From positions 64,001-128,000 of the forward strand of contig JBLWVX010000001.1 in assembly GCA_048268245.1 (NCBI GenBank): DNA of 64,000 nt. The letters are read 5' to 3'. The stretch comes from Arcobacteraceae bacterium (lineage in GTDB: Bacteria; Campylobacterota; Campylobacteria; Campylobacterales; Arcobacteraceae). Both the position numbers and the translations under genes were made by a program. The first letter of the stretch is position 1, and each line of letters starts with the position of its first letter. Positions 7,435 to 12,983 of this stretch are shown one piece after another. The notes under the pieces are model-generated. The model searched no databases. It was not told the origin of the DNA and was given only the letters and a program-made list of their open reading frames with translations.

Positions 7435-7767
7435 TTACTCGCACATTAAAGTATATGGTCTTTTAAGCTCTTCAATAAATAAAGATATAGATATGTTTCT
7501 TCCATATCTTTTGAACTCTTTTGTATCAAAATAGACCAGTATTGTAGGTATAGAAAATACCGTAAAATGGCTTGTAAGTTCTTTATACAAATCAGTCTTA
7601 ACTTCATACATCACAAATCTTGAGAATTCTTTTTTTACACTTTGTTCAATTTTTGGTTTTAAAACTTTACATACTGAACAATTCTCACCGGAAAAATATA
7701 TTAATACAGGTTCCCCTGTATTAATACTATCTTGAAGCTGAAGTAGTTTTGTGGCTTGTTTCATCAT
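7435..7767 (-). CDS. Thioredoxin-family protein
   Basis: YFSGENCSVCK CxxC motif and VFSIPTIL cis-Pro loop. Confidence 0.85.
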   Translation of the reverse strand: MMKQATKLLQLQDSINTGEPVLIYFSGENCSVCKVLKPKIEQSVKKEFSRFVMYEVKTDLYKELTSHFTVFSIPTILVYFDTKEFKRYGRNISISLFIEELKRPYTLMCE

Positions 7768-9736
7768 CTTTTTTTACTTCTTCTTTATCATTTTTATCAA
7801 TTTTAACTTCATAAGCTTTCTCTTTAAAAATATCTTTTTTTGATAAAGAGATACCTTTCATATGAGTTAAGGGGAAGGCAAAAGCAATACCTTTTCCTGT
7901 AGTTGTTATATGTAATGAATGAATAATTGATTTTATAACATCATTAACTAAATACTTAGGTAATAAGAATAAAAGCAATGCATCGTTTGCTTCAAAACTT
8001 GTTCTATAGAAATTAGCCATTTCTTCAAGACCGATACCATCCGCTCTTAATACAGTAACCCCTGAAGCCCCAGCTTTATGAGCAGCAGAAATTGCATCAA
8101 GTTTTTTATCAACAGGAACAATTATAACAACAGCACTGAACTCTAAATCTAAAGAGTGTCTAACAGAGGAACCATCAATATTAACTGTAGCTAAATTCAT
8201 ATTTTCAGCATCAACTAAAGCATCTTTTAATAGCTCTTCTTTTTCAATTTCTGTATCTGATTTTACACCTATTTTTTCAGTTATGATACCATAAAGCATT
8301 ACAGTAATCATTGGAAATAATGAAGCAAAAGCAATAAGTCCAAAACCATCAATAAGAGGACTTCTTCCCTCAATATTAGTAGCAAGTCCAATACCAAGTG
8401 CAGCAACTAATGGAACTGTTACAGTTGAAGTTGTAACCCCACCACTATCATAAGCAATAGGAATAATATACTTAGGTGCAATAAATGTAAGAATAATAAC
8501 TACCATATATCCAACAATAATATAATAGTGAATATGCCCACCATCTACAATTCTAAATGCACCTAAAGCAATACCAATAGCAACCCCAAAAGCAACAAAT
8601 ATTCTTAATACAAAGTCATTTATTTTACCATCAGAAATATCTTTTGCTTTTTTTGCAATAGCCATCAAAGCTGGTTCTGCCATAGTTGTTGAGAAACCAA
8701 TAGCAAAAGCAAAGGCATAAATCATCATTACAGAATCAGATTTTGTTAACTGGTAAGCCATTGTTTCACCAAGTGTGAATAGACCCATTTCTAGCCCAAG
8801 AATAAATGCATCAAGACCTAAAATAACAAGAAAAAATCCTAAAAATACAGTTTTAATGTTTTCTATTTTTTTCTTTAATACAGCATATTGAAAGAAAAGA
8901 ATAATTAATAAAATAGGTGCAACATCTTTTACAACATTTACTAATCCCATTAATAATGAAGAAACAGAAATAGTTGTATTTGTTGATACAGCAGCTTCTA
9001 CAGCAACAGCAGCTACATCTTTTGCATCAACTAAGTTATAAACTGCAATTCCGTAAATTTGCACAAAAATCATAGGAGTTAAAGATGCAAAAGCAATAAG
9101 TCCAAAGCCATCAACAACTGGGTTTCTTCCTTTTATAGTTGTTGCAAGACCAATACCAAGTGCAGCAACTAAAGGAACTGTTACAGTTGAAGTTGTAACT
9201 CCACCTAAGTCATATGCAAGTCCAATGATCTCTTTTGGAGCAAAGAAAGTAACACTTACAACTAGTAAGTACCCTGCAATAATATAGTAGTGTATAGGAT
9301 GTCCTTTATAAATCCTATATACACCTAAGAAAATAGCAAAACCAACAGAGCCTGCAACTACAAGTCTTAACATAGTTGCATCAATACGACCACTAGAAAT
9401 AGAAGCTGCTTTATCTGCAATTACTGCAAGTGCTGGTTCTGCAATTGTTGTACCAAAACCTATTAAAAAAGCAAAAAAGAGTACCCAAAGCATTGTTCCA
9501 TGCTTTGCAAAATCCCTTGCTAAACCTTCTCCTACTGGGAATATACCAATTTCAAGTCCCTGTAAAAAAATAGCTAATCCAACACCAACAATAGCTAATC
9601 CAATCGCAGTGCTAACCCACCCCTCGGGTACAGCTTGGATAATTGCTAGTTGAAAAAATAGAATAACTACAACTATAGGAATTAAATCCCGAAATGACTC
9701 TTTTAATAGCTTCAAAAAGAAGTTAAATTGCATCAT
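7727..9736 (-). CDS. Tandem DUF1538 membrane protein fused to a C-terminal P-II-like domain
   Basis: Two internal repeats, each with AEPAL, AYD(L/S)GGVTTSTVTVPLVAALGIGLA and DGFGLIAFASL. The C-terminus AVVIIVP...GASGVTVLRADGIG...GKGIAFAFP is P-II-like. Confidence 0.8.
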   Translation of the reverse strand: MMQFNFFLKLLKESFRDLIPIVVVILFFQLAIIQAVPEGWVSTAIGLAIVGVGLAIFLQGLEIGIFPVGEGLARDFAKHGTMLWVLFFAFLIGFGTTIAEPALAVIADKAASISSGRIDATMLRLVVAGSVGFAIFLGVYRIYKGHPIHYYIIAGYLLVVSVTFFAPKEIIGLAYDLGGVTTSTVTVPLVAALGIGLATTIKGRNPVVDGFGLIAFASLTPMIFVQIYGIAVYNLVDAKDVAAVAVEAAVSTNTTISVSSLLMGLVNVVKDVAPILLIILFFQYAVLKKKIENIKTVFLGFFLVILGLDAFILGLEMGLFTLGETMAYQLTKSDSVMMIYAFAFAIGFSTTMAEPALMAIAKKAKDISDGKINDFVLRIFVAFGVAIGIALGAFRIVDGGHIHYYIIVGYMVVIILTFIAPKYIIPIAYDSGGVTTSTVTVPLVAALGIGLATNIEGRSPLIDGFGLIAFASLFPMITVMLYGIITEKIGVKSDTEIEKEELLKDALVDAENMNLATVNIDGSSVRHSLDLEFSAVVIIVPVDKKLDAISAAHKAGASGVTVLRADGIGLEEMANFYRTSFEANDALLLFLLPKYLVNDVIKSIIHSLHITTTGKGIAFAFPLTHMKGISLSKKDIFKEKAYEVKIDKNDKEEVKKDDETSHKTTSASR

Positions 9737-9897: not shown

Positions 9898-11451
9898 TTA
9901 AACTTGGTGTTCGTTTTTCTTAGAAAGTCTTTCTTTTTGAGAAAGATAAGAGTTTACACTTCCTAAATAAGCTTTTGCAGTTGCTAACATAGTATCAATG
10001 CTTAATCCATGTCCTACAAATGAAGGTGAATCATCATCAAAACTTACTCTTGTAGTAACTTTAGCAAGTGCATCTTTACCTTCTGTTACAGAAATTACAT
10101 TATAGCTTTCTAAACTTCCATTAATTCCTGTTAATCTATCAATTGTTTTAAAGATTGCATCCATTGTACCTTCACCAATATTTGCATCTTGCATAACTGA
10201 ATCATTATGTTTAATTGAAACAGCAGCCATTGGCATACCATTTGAGCAATCAGAGATTTGTAAACCAACTAATTCATAAATTTTACCACTATTTAATGAC
10301 TCATCAGTAATTAACATTCTTATATCATCATCTGTTACATCTTTTTTCTTATCAGCTAAGATTTTGAATCTTTCAAATGCAGCGTTTAATTCTTCGTCAC
10401 TTACTTTATCAAAACCTAAATGCTCAATTTTATCTCTAAACGCAGCTCTTCCTGAATGTTTACCTAAAATTAAAGTAGAGTCTTTAAATACTCCAACATC
10501 TTCTGGCTTCATAATTTCATATGTTTCTTGGTGTTTTAATACACCATCTTGGTGAATACCACTTTCATGAGCAAAAGCATTTTTACCAACAATTGCTTTA
10601 TTTTGTTGTGGTTCAACACCTGTAATAGTGGCAACTAATCTTGAAGTTGGGTAGATTTCAGGTGTATTGATACTTGTATATAATTCACCAAAAGCATCTT
10701 TTCTAGTTTTAATAGCCATCACAGCTTCTTCTAAAGATGAGTTACCAGCTCTTTCACCTAAACCATTGATTGTTACTTCAATTTGTCTAGCACCATTTGT
10801 AACTGCTGCTAAAGTATTTGCTGTTGCTAAACCTAAGTCATTATGATTATGAACAGAGATTCTAGCTCTATCTCCAGCAAATTCAGATAATTCTTTTACC
10901 ATTGCACCTAATTCATTTGGTAATCTATAACCAACTGTATCAGGTAAGTTAATAGTTGAAGCACCTGCATTTATAACTGCATCCATAACTTCTTTCATAA
11001 ATGGAATCTCAGATCTTCCAGCATCTTCTAATGAAAATTCAACATCTTCAACAAATGTTCTAGCATATTCTACTGCATGAACTGCTCTTTTTATAACTTC
11101 ATCAGGACTCATTTTTAACTTATATTGCATATGAATTGGAGAAGTAGCAATAAAAGTATGTATTCTATGTAATGGAGCTTTTGAAACTGCTAAACCAGAT
11201 TGTTTAATATCATTCTCAATTGCTCTACTTAAAGAACAAATTGAAGAATTTTTAACTTGTTCTGCAATTCTAGAAACTGCATCAAAATCACCAGGACTTG
11301 CAGCAGCAAAACCAGCTTCAATAACATCAACACCTAACTTTTCTAACTGTAATGCAACTTTTATTTTCTCTTCTGTATTCATAGAACAACCAGGAGATTG
11401 CTCACCATCTCTTAATGTAGTATCAAAAACTATAATTTTATTTTTATCCAT
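9898..11451 (-). CDS. leuA: 2-isopropylmalate synthase
   Basis: [50 protein letters not shown]-terminal regulatory domain. Confidence 0.97.
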
Positions 11452-11564
11452 TGTGTGTACCCTTTAAAATATACAATATTATATCTTTTTTTATTTTATA
11501 AAAAAGAAAACTATAACGATTTATTTTATATTTGATTTAAATATGTAAAGTCTAATTTTAGTAA

Positions 11565-11642
11565 TTAGAGAGAGATTTTAAGTAGAAGAAGAGAGTTAAC
11601 ACTTTTTATAAATTGATTGTTGTAAAAATCAAAAATTTTCAT
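11565..11642 (-). CDS. Putative leu leader peptide MKIFDFYNNQFIKSVNSLLLLKISL
   Basis: SD AGGAG just upstream of ATG; CTT CTT CTA CTT Leu run; lies between a near-consensus promoter and leuA. Confidence 0.8.
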   Translation of the reverse strand: MKIFDFYNNQFIKSVNSLLLLKISL

Positions 11643-11671
11643 TTTCTCTCCTGAATAAATTAATTAGCTTA

Positions 11672-11700
11672 AGTATAATTAATAAAATTAAATTTGTCAA
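11672..11700 (-). promoter_or_regulatory. Sigma70-type promoter of the leader/leuA transcript
   Basis: Minus strand TTGACA (11700-11695), 17-nt spacer, TATACT (11677-11672). Confidence 0.75.
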
Positions 11701-11702
11701 GA

Positions 11703-12983
11703 CTATTTTGATTTATTTGATAAATATACTTGATTCCTTCCATTTACTTTTGCTTTATATAGTGCTTTATCAGAAGATTTATATAATTCTTCTTCATTAT
11801 CTATATATTTTGAGTTTTGAACTATAAGACCTGCTGATATTGTTACATATTCACTAGCAGAATTAGCTGAGTGTTTAATTTTAAGGTTTTCAATATTTTT
11901 TATAATTCGTTTTGCATAACTCATTGAATCTTCTATATCTAAAGCTGAAAATATTATACAAAACTCTTCTCCACCAACTCTAAATACATAATCAGTTGCT
12001 CTTGATGTTGATTCTTTTAAAGCCTTTGCAACTTGTTTTAATATTTCATCACCTTTTGGATGTCCATAAGTATCATTATACTTTTTAAAGTAATCAATAT
12101 CTAAAGACAGAAGGCTTAAACTAATACCTTCTCTTTTTACTCTTCTTATTTCTTTTCCAAGAATTTCATTAAAATGTCTTCTATTATAAAGCTTTGTTAA
12201 ATCATCTTCAATTGATAAAAGTTCTAATTTCTTAGCATTTGTGATATCTTCTCTAATAGCTATAAAATTTACTATTTCACCATCATTAAAAACAGGAGTG
12301 ATAGTCAAATTTGCCCAGTAAATCTCTCCATCTTTTTTTCTATTTTTAATTTCTGAAGTGAAAACTTTTCCTGAAGATATTTGACTCCACATATTTTTAT
12401 AAAATTCATCTGGAGTGTCTTCATGTATTAATAATGAATGCTTATTTCCTATAAGTTCTGTTTTATTATAACCTATGAAATTTGTAAATGCTGTACTAGC
12501 ATCAATAATCACTCCATCTTTATCTGTAATAGATAATAAAACATTTTCATCAACTATTTCTAGTAAATTATCTTTTTCAAAAAGTTGATCTCTTAAATGA
12601 GTAGTTAAAAAACAATCTTGTATATCATATATCAACTGCATCAAATCAATAGGTTTTATTACAAATTTATTTACTTGAAGTTCTATTGCTTTTAGAAAAT
12701 AGTCTAAATCAGAATATGCTGTAGTTACAATAACAGGTACACTCTTTTTGTTAATCTTTTTTAGCATATCAATACCATTCATTTTTGGCATTTGAATATC
12801 AGTGATTATTAAATCAGGGTTTATTTCATGAAAAAGTTCATACCCCTCTTCTCCATTTTTAGCAGTATGAAAGTTAGGTATATTTCTACTTAAAAAATAT
12901 GTTACTTCTTCTCTAATCATATCTTCATCTTCAACATAAAGTACAATAAGGTTTAAAAGTAATTCTTTATTTATTTTTTTCAT
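11703..12983 (-). CDS. REC-PAS-GGDEF diguanylate cyclase
   Basis: Receiver (VEDE, TDIQMP, KP), PAS/PAC, DDLTKLYNRR, DIDYFKKYND, RATD I-site, GGEEF. Confidence 0.93.
   Translation of the reverse strand: MKKINKELLLNLIVLYVEDEDMIREEVTYFLSRNIPNFHTAKNGEEGYELFHEINPDLIITDIQMPKMNGIDMLKKINKKSVPVIVTTAYSDLDYFLKAIELQVNKFVIKPIDLMQLIYDIQDCFLTTHLRDQLFEKDNLLEIVDENVLLSITDKDGVIIDASTAFTNFIGYNKTELIGNKHSLLIHEDTPDEFYKNMWSQISSGKVFTSEIKNRKKDGEIYWANLTITPVFNDGEIVNFIAIREDITNAKKLELLSIEDDLTKLYNRRHFNEILGKEIRRVKREGISLSLLSLDIDYFKKYNDTYGHPKGDEILKQVAKALKESTSRATDYVFRVGGEEFCIIFSALDIEDSMSYAKRIIKNIENLKIKHSANSASEYVTISAGLIVQNSKYIDNEEELYKSSDKALYKAKVNGRNQVYLSNKSK

Follow-up and report, generated by a model that had tools for sequence, protein, structure and literature searches.

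What does a short, leucine-rich open reading frame (ORF) do in front of leuA, when the RNA between the two holds no classical attenuator? The question is raised by leuL, a 25-codon ORF on the minus strand of a 64,000-nucleotide (nt) stretch of Arcobacteraceae DNA (GenBank assembly GCA_048268245.1, contig JBLWVX010000001.1, positions 64,001 to 128,000). This whole stretch is called the window below, and coordinates refer to it unless a contig is named. leuL directly precedes leuA, the gene for 2-isopropylmalate synthase. Comparing the locus with its relatives, we arrive at an explanation to which we give a probability of roughly 0.5: leuL is a Leu leader whose ribosomes, stalling at CUN codons, would let transcripts from the leader promoter P1 reach leuA, with Rho as the likeliest terminator. 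The core of this explanation, that leuL senses Leu-tRNA and controls leuA in cis as a leader, is highly probable. The parts of the leader, together with leuA, are as follows.

11672 to 11700, minus strand: promoter P1 of the leader (TTGACA at 11700-11695, a 17-nt spacer, TATACT at 11677-11672).
11646 to 11652, minus strand: ribosome-binding site of leuL, AGGAGAG, 3 nt upstream of the ATG.
11565 to 11642, minus strand: leuL leader ORF, 25 codons plus TAA, peptide MKIFDFYNNQFIKSVNSLLLLKISL (ATG at 11642, stop TAA at 11565).
11580 to 11591, minus strand: regulatory Leu run, CTT CTT CTA CTT, codons 18-21.
11568 to 11570, minus strand: terminal Leu codon CTC (codon 25), immediately upstream of TAA.
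11460 to 11465, minus strand: ribosome-binding site of leuA, AAAGGG.
9898 to 11451, minus strand: leuA, 2-isopropylmalate synthase, 517 amino acids, with LeuA allosteric domain, identified by NCBIfam equivalogs and domain matches.

A preliminary description of the locus had proposed this minus-strand layout of promoter, Shine-Dalgarno sequence, 25-codon ORF and 113-nt gap before leuA, with five CUN codons near the stop. Checking each element, we found all of them where they had been placed; the spacer from the leuL stop to the leuA ATG (11451) measures 113 nt. The peptide carries LLLL at residues 18-21 and ends in a further L, and all five Leu codons are CUN. P1 matches 11 of 12 consensus positions and was the sole promoter-like site reported by a consensus scan of 11200-12000. 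Such a promoter is unusually near consensus for this host, as a -35 box within one mismatch of TTGACA stands at just 7 of 168 well-placed TATAAT boxes in the genome. Five short ORFs of the genome follow a TTGACA-type promoter, and among them an amino-acid run occurs in leuL alone.

We searched 121 genomes of the family for leuA and found it in 116. Upstream DNA was taken from 113 loci, including the window's own; two had too little upstream sequence, leaving 111 assessable loci. Of these, 92 have a Leu-rich leader ORF upstream of leuA. At 75 loci this short ORF comes with a ribosome-binding site, at least three Leu in a row and the motif K/Q-S-x-N; 11 have a different Leu-run ORF, and six have a homologous ORF with a weakened Leu run. 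An ungapped, homologous 25-codon form is common to 67 loci (64 unique sequences), of which 63 have an exact TTGACA-17-TAnnnT upstream of the leader, and the GGAGAG of the leuL ribosome-binding site is almost invariant among relatives. The entropy of the 64 unique leaders follows the reading frame, with values of 0.505, 0.421 and 0.952 at codon positions 1, 2 and 3, and in the F-I-K-S-V-N codons the variation is almost confined to the third position. Since the spacer behind the ORF is unalignable between genera, the low variation of the ORF reflects selection and not lack of time. Judged by this evolutionary signature, the leuL ORF is under selection at the peptide level and is translated. The claim that leuL is a genuine Leu-codon leader thus holds, with conservation (92/111), three-base periodicity and CUN bias in agreement. 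In L070 and L071 (genus g15) and in L037, the 25-codon (or 21-codon) frame and a FIKSVN-like motif are present and the run is replaced (TLNLS..., TLLFV); L070 and L071 still have three CTC/CUC codons each.

The choice of Leu codons is equally constrained. In 1967 crude ORFs of at least 150 amino acids from the window's genome (G+C 27.9%), Leu is encoded by TTA (57.5%), CTT (23.8%), CTA (12.6%), TTG (4.7%), CTG (0.9%) and CTC (0.5%). CUN codons thus make up 37.8% of the total, and five CUN out of five in the leader has a p of about 0.008. Of the codons used in the leader, CTC (0.5%) counts as rare and CTT (23.8%) does not. Across the 64 unique leaders, CUN is used at 231 of 249 non-terminal Leu codons, and the terminal Leu codon is CTC in all 63 unique 25-codon leaders with a Leu end. 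Entropy is about 0.1 at all three positions of this terminal CTC, and TAA is likewise near-invariant. In the aligned sequences, this pattern indicates a constraint on the terminal CTC at the nucleotide or codon level. A gene for tRNA-Leu(UAG) was not found, but the draft assembly holds 41 tRNA genes only, so that no conclusion can be drawn from its absence. Among these 41 are none for Ala, Ile, His or Trp, and the only Leu anticodons are UAA (three genes) and GAG (one gene); a tRNA reading CUA/CUG was not identified.

Comparing 59 leuA upstream regions from 19 further families, we find a Leu-rich short ORF at 35 loci (counted on rows). A conserved Leu run before leuA in relatives, which the preliminary description had proposed as a check, is present in the family and in loci of other families. 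Directly upstream of the run, 20 of the 59 loci share another motif, [AS]-x-K-x-LPKIEIKN, which spans six families and has entropies of 0.53, 0.48 and 1.18 at the three codon positions.

L115-L118, L128-L131, L135, L145-L148, L155-L159, L172 and L173, leuA upstream regions of six families: LPKIEIKN-type leaders.

In these leaders, the non-regulatory Leu of LPK is mostly TTA or TTG, and the run is CTN. The spacers from stop to ATG measure 47-83 nt, are nearly G-free upstream of the ribosome-binding site and fold mostly at about 0 to -6 kcal/mol. At such lengths there is no room for a terminator/antiterminator switch there either. Performing a full-text literature search, we did not find the motif LPKIEIKN in any paper; the peptides as such appear in a supplement of 2013, in whose pertinent parts they are not commented on.

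The preliminary description had further stated that such an attenuator was not described in Campylobacterota, and here it was mistaken. LeuL was named by Porcelli et al. (2013, BMC Genomics 14:616, PMC3847290), with orthologues in most Epsilonproteobacteria that have leu genes. According to the pertinent passages of that paper, LeuL of C. jejuni has 28 amino acids, precedes leuABCD and contains five rare Leu codons, and its RNAs, seen by differential RNA sequencing, "terminate shortly behind the stopcodon". There it was proposed, in general terms and in those passages with no terminator shown, that absence of stalling leads to termination and stalling to antitermination. Table S1 lists a single primary transcription start site for cj1719c, at LeuL. 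The peptides of Fig. S7 and Table S12 include MKIFDFYKSHFIKSVNSLLLLSFSL (A. butzleri), MKIFDFYKNHFIKSVNSLLLLSFSL (Arcobacter sp. L) and MKNINFFKNNFTKSSNSQLLLKNFL (A. nitrofigilis), which equal the peptides of loci L053, L038 and L042 of our family set; the window's peptide shares 20 of its 25 residues with that of A. butzleri. For C. jejuni LeuL, strong initiation peaks in ribosome profiling document translation (Froschauer et al. 2025, Nat Commun 16:3078, PMC11955535). With LeuL of Campylobacterota, the window element shares its place before leuA, a length within 20-35 amino acids, a ribosome-binding site and a run of Leu at the C-terminal end that is encoded by codons other than UUA. By these sequence features it is a member of the published LeuL family, another species' copy and not a new element. 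What goes beyond the passages and supplements of the 2013 paper is the second promoter, the dyad and the peptide conservation outside the Leu run, which are unmentioned there. In the literature on Arcobacter and Campylobacter we found no mechanistic study of leuL and no map of Arcobacter transcription start sites.

How, then, might leuL act on leuA? We examined the RNA between the two, where the following features lie.

11520 to 11597, minus strand: 78 C-rich, G-poor nt that start at codon 16 and extend into the spacer, with 14 C and one G; candidate Rho loading region.
11551 to 11569, minus strand: predicted weak hairpin whose 5' arm holds the leuL stop codon (UCUAAUU / AAUUAGA, -3.7 kcal/mol).
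11484 to 11507, minus strand: U-run/A-run dyad (UCUUUUUU ... AAAAAAGA), the weak A/U stem of the preliminary description, predicted at -3.7 kcal/mol.
11478 to 11483, minus strand: TATAAT, probable -10 element of a leuA-proximal promoter P2; its first T lies 32 nt upstream of the leuA ATG, and it adjoins the dyad.

A consensus scan for G+C-rich intrinsic terminators in 11200-12000 returned no terminator-like site. An Rfam search (cmscan, E up to 10) of 11000-12200 gave no leader match and five weak, unrelated matches outside the leader. Folding 18 representative leader loci to their minimum free energy, we saw no conserved alternative helix that could serve as a mutually exclusive antiterminator over the regulatory codons. 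On all three counts, the proposed absence of a classical GC terminator/antiterminator pair is borne out, and leuL is not a classical terminator-based attenuator. The sole recurrent long-range pairing in the 18 folds joins AGGAGAG(U) of the leuL ribosome-binding site with (A/U)CUCUUCU of codons 17-19. As the two sides are near-invariant, there is little covariation to score; at the one variable pair, A goes with T in 6 of 6 loci, and T goes with A in 28 and with T in 21.

The predicted helices between leuL and leuA are A/U-rich, reach -1 to -5 kcal/mol and have no U run behind them. The stop codon lies within the 5' arm of a hairpin in 49 of 88 distinct leaders. A contiguous stem of at least 6 bp with the leader's own downstream sequence forms in 33 of 64, against a mean of 15.4 and a maximum of 24 with permuted partners (300 permutations, relatedness uncontrolled). 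In the window's genus and in g6, a short CUUU(U) tract follows this hairpin. In genus g7 (L101, L104, L107), the Leu-run leader precedes a short hairpin that contains G+C and has a U run behind it (for example GACU...AGUC, then UUUUCCGUUUUUUU), which by its sequence looks like an ordinary intrinsic terminator more than anything in the window's group does.

The composition of this RNA is skewed as well. Over the 78 nt from codon 16, 65 unique loci have on average 15.7 C and 2.6 G, and about 2% of the genome's 78-nt windows reach the C-minus-G skew of that mean. The 40 nt downstream of the leuL stop contain on average 5.2 C and 1.6 G.

The stem of the preliminary description at about 11484-11507 is indeed weak and A/U-paired; what was overlooked is that it forms part of a conserved dyad abutting a conserved TATAAT. 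Most loci keep the dyad, with both arms changed in step (TCTTTTTTT/AAAAAAAGA, TATTTTTT/AAAAAATA, TCAATTTT/AAAATTGA). These compensatory changes were judged by eye, with no tool count, and the 5' arm stands in varying register, with an arm spacing of 11 to 20 nt (counted on aligned rows). RNAalifold, run on 50 ungapped dyad sequences anchored at TATAAT, returned no consensus structure. The arrangement of dyad and TATAAT occurs at four distinct sites in the 2.68-Mb genome, one of them in the window, where 0.04 would be expected. A regulator of the Lrp/AsnC type was considered as a ligand of the dyad and rejected, as no AsnC_trans_reg domain was found in the genome (99.3% complete) and the variable arm spacing disfavours a fixed operator.

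An exact TATAAT lies 30-46 nt upstream of the leuA ATG in 65 of the 67 loci, and in 58 of these it lies at 31-33 nt. Profiling 474 genes of the genome that have a ribosome-binding site and free upstream DNA, we find a TATAAT peak 30-39 nt upstream of start codons (85 in the bin, against about 10 in distal bins). Standing at the host's usual -10 distance, the TATAAT before leuA looks like an ordinary promoter of the organism, and leuA probably has its own promoter P2. Two leaderless relatives, L046 and L073, keep the TATAAT, and L073 keeps the dyad too. L046 (genome G060, of the window's genus) is a natural loss of the whole leader, from the -10 region of P1 to the dyad loop. The deletion falls between two copies of TTATTAAATA and leaves TTGACA, 27 nt and TATAAT before leuA.

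The explanation that we prefer would run as follows. The strong consensus P1 and the strong ribosome-binding site would give a short mRNA in which four consecutive CUN codons and, at the end, a very rare CUC have to be translated. Under a shortage of charged Leu-tRNA, the ribosome would stall at the pyrimidine-rich Leu codons near the stop and would cover the start of the C-rich, G-poor, unstructured stretch, so that transcription from P1 would continue into leuA. When leucine is plentiful, the ribosome would finish and leave, the stretch would be exposed and P1 transcripts would end before leuA. P2 would provide leucine-independent basal expression of leuA. The terminating agent would most likely be Rho, because no intrinsic terminator is present; among the possible read-outs we favour a Rho-dependent ending step, tentatively and at somewhat less than even chances. 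Rho is encoded in the genome (PF07497, 96.2 bits, 447-amino-acid open frame, G000:C3), the RNA that would be exposed is C-rich, G-poor and unstructured, and short leuL RNAs occur in C. jejuni. Control through Rho, one of the routes suggested in the preliminary description, is thus compatible with these data. The 15 runs considered were all Logan contigs, and contigs of three coded runs bridge the 5' end of leuA, P2, the dyad and leuL: X1 (11363-11630), X2 (11404-11645) and X9 (11405-11588). X9 is an RNA library, X1 and X2 are RNA by guess, and contigs do not prove a single transcript; those across P2 give a weak hint of read-through.

Several observations weigh against this explanation. The leader is missing at 19 of the 111 assessable family loci (18 by script, plus L046, whose match is the tail of a neighbouring gene) and at 24 of the 59 loci of other families, and is thus evolutionarily dispensable; at most of the 19 loci, leuA directly follows another gene. 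Three leaders (L037, L070, L071) have kept the ORF and lost the Leu run. With a probable promoter of its own, leuA would be expressed in part without passing through the leader at all. The spacer, 113 nt here and 47-83 nt in other families, would give Rho little length in which to load and reach the polymerase ahead of the protection of the RNA by leuA ribosomes. CUN codon use accounts for a good part of the C-over-G skew, and the stretch is short. Finally, the model leaves unexplained the conserved peptide sequence (FIKSVN, LPKIEIKN), the dyad beside P2 and the stop-codon hairpin.

Other explanations divide these observations differently. It is possible, though doubtful, that the nascent peptide takes part in a terminator-less leucine gauge that is read out via Rho or RNase J rather than through an RNA switch. 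The residues just upstream of the Leu run are conserved as amino acids, in Arcobacteraceae as FIKSVN[ST] and in six other families as LPKIEIKN, and their synonymous sites vary freely. During a stall they would occupy the upper part of the exit tunnel, where they might modulate or prolong the pause at hungry CUN codons or shield the ribosome from rescue. If the peptide instead had its own function, in trans or as a small protein, and leuA were driven by P2, leuL would not be a cis regulator, or not only one. The rhizobial leader peptide peTrpL is reported to act in trans (bioRxiv 10.1101/864512). Selection at the peptide level far beyond the Leu run, family-wide for FIKSVN and in six other families for LPKIEIKN, would fit such a function, as would a P2 that is conserved and kept where the leader is lost, and the three leaders that keep the ORF without the run. 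However, the ORF stands directly before leuA at every leader-bearing locus examined and at no other leu gene of the genome, the extreme CUN/CUC bias would have no reason in a free-standing small protein, and a function of this kind would not exclude control in cis; we consider it improbable. An RNase J-based explanation, which we hold to be unlikely, would have the ribosome stalled at the Leu codons block 5'-to-3' decay, so that the P1-leuL-leuA mRNA would be longer-lived under leucine shortage; the stabilisation of ermC mRNA by a stalled ribosome in Bacillus is similar. It needs no structure or RNA switch between leader and leuA and fits the unstructured 47-83-nt spacers of the other families. 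RNase J is encoded (TIGR00649, 642.8 bits, cut-off 400), no RNase E/G was found in the 99.3%-complete genome, and the leader lies about 25 nt from the predicted 5' end, with a strong ribosome-binding site. That very site speaks against it too, as a strong ribosome-binding site near the 5' end tends to protect RNA constitutively. Stabilisation also leaves the C-rich, G-poor bias unexplained, and the short C. jejuni leuL RNAs ending after the stop, as described in PMC3847290, point to termination or processing and not to decay of a whole transcript.

Those same short RNAs, ending just after the stop codon (PMC3847290), would suit an A/U hairpin, either the stop-codon hairpin or the dyad, that acts as a weak intrinsic terminator or as a pause site; a ribosome stalled at codon 21 or 25 would cover the 5' arm of the stop hairpin. 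The stop hairpin recurs in differing sequences (49/88, and 33/64 against the permuted mean of 15.4), a CUUU(U) tract follows it in the window's genus and g6, and the terminal CTC is invariant; the dyad, for its part, is rare in the genome and its arms change in step. Yet the helices, at -1 to -5 kcal/mol, are very weak, the stop hairpin is absent from about half of the leaders, RNAalifold gave no consensus helix on the ungapped dyad alignment, and behind the dyad comes UAUAAUAUU instead of a U run. The stop hairpin could still form with a ribosome stalled at codons 18-20, and one on the stop codon would likewise melt it, so that only stalls at codons 21-25 would give the right sign of regulation. 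Taking these points together, we regard termination or pausing at a hairpin as quite unlikely. Translational attenuation appears the least probable: the pyrimidine-rich Leu-codon region would base-pair with the ribosome-binding site of leuA, which a stalled ribosome would set free. CU-rich codons can pair with AAAGGG, the leuA site does pair with a CU-rich region in about 11 of the 18 minimum-free-energy folds, and masking codons 14-25 lifts its mean predicted accessibility from 0.38 to 0.50. But masking by a ribosome at the stop codon gives a near-equal rise (0.45), and the pairing partner changes from locus to locus. Sequestration of the leuA site by the leader was negative when compared with shuffled controls: the native leader does no better than leaders with shuffled ORFs (0.38 vs 0.35 unpaired) and is lower in 26 of 65 loci only.

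The surroundings of the leader are those of a single leu gene. leuA scores 748.6 bits with NF002086 (cut-off 532) and 663.2 bits with TIGR00973 (cut-off 598.7), both NCBIfam equivalogs, and has HMGL-like, HCS_D2 and LeuA_dimer domains. The gene after it (7727-9736, minus strand) consists of two fused DUF1538 halves and a C-terminal P-II-like domain. Against the NCBIfam Na,Li,K/H+ antiporter subunits, its halves pass the cut-off of UmpA (505 bits, cut-off 490) and approach that of UmpB (422 bits, cut-off 500). As the gene downstream is this DUF1538 fusion, leuA stands alone, outside any leuABCD operon. The gene upstream of P1 (11703-12983, minus strand) is of the diguanylate cyclase type, with response-regulator receiver, PAS and GGDEF domains, and its stop codon lies just 2 nt upstream of the P1 -35 box. 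We also looked for leaders before the leuC-like and leuD-leuB genes of the genome and saw none; the Leu leader occurs at leuA only. At G000:C4:19707-20999 (minus strand) and G000:C38:6896-7924 (plus strand), the leuC-like gene is preceded by a plain TATAAT promoter without any leader, and leuB lies downstream of leuD with overlapping stop and start codons.

The ORF itself has been in print since 2013, and the interest of the locus rests on the mechanism and on peptide conservation far beyond the regulatory codons: a whole bacterial class appears to sense leucine by a leader peptide, and to do so with no textbook hairpin switch. The mapped parts (P1, the CUN run, the terminal CUC, the stop hairpin, the C-rich spacer, the dyad and P2) are concrete targets for mutation, and leuL is to be added upstream of leuA in the annotation of Arcobacteraceae genomes.

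Leu-rich leader peptides outside the enterobacteria include the actinobacterial LEU element and the staphylococcal ilv-leu attenuator (PMC1262725, PMC5794164). These belong to other lineages, and their abstracts give no sign of homology to leuL. The enterobacterial leuL-leuABCD attenuator (Rfam Leu_leader RF00512) resembles the window's locus in having a Leu-codon leader ORF before leuA and in its presumed signal, the supply of charged tRNA-Leu. Enterobacterial leuL likewise contains consecutive Leu codons, rare ones included. The two differ in that our locus has no G+C-rich terminator with a U run, no terminator/antiterminator pair and no covariance-model match, and in that leuA here apparently has its own promoter. 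In the ermC leader of Gram-positives, a stalled ribosome brings about translational attenuation and mRNA stabilisation without a transcription terminator. The stall there depends on an antibiotic and the nascent peptide, and the ermC ribosome-binding site lies in a defined hairpin. With ermC our locus would have in common that a ribosome stalls within a short leader ORF near the 5' end, and RNase J-type decay is encoded here; in contrast to ermC, sequestration of the leuA ribosome-binding site was not detected. The mechanism that we prefer, a Leu leader whose stalled ribosome would keep Rho from the RNA, follows the logic of tnaC-tnaA of E. coli. In tna, transcription continues when a ribosome that has halted at the end of the leader ORF masks a Rho loading site by the stop codon. 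Such masking is proposed here for the C-rich, G-poor stretch that starts at the Leu codons. For tna, the nascent peptide senses free tryptophan at the stop codon, and the spacer measures about 220 nt; at the window's leuL, the signal would be hungry codons, and the spacer measures 113 nt.

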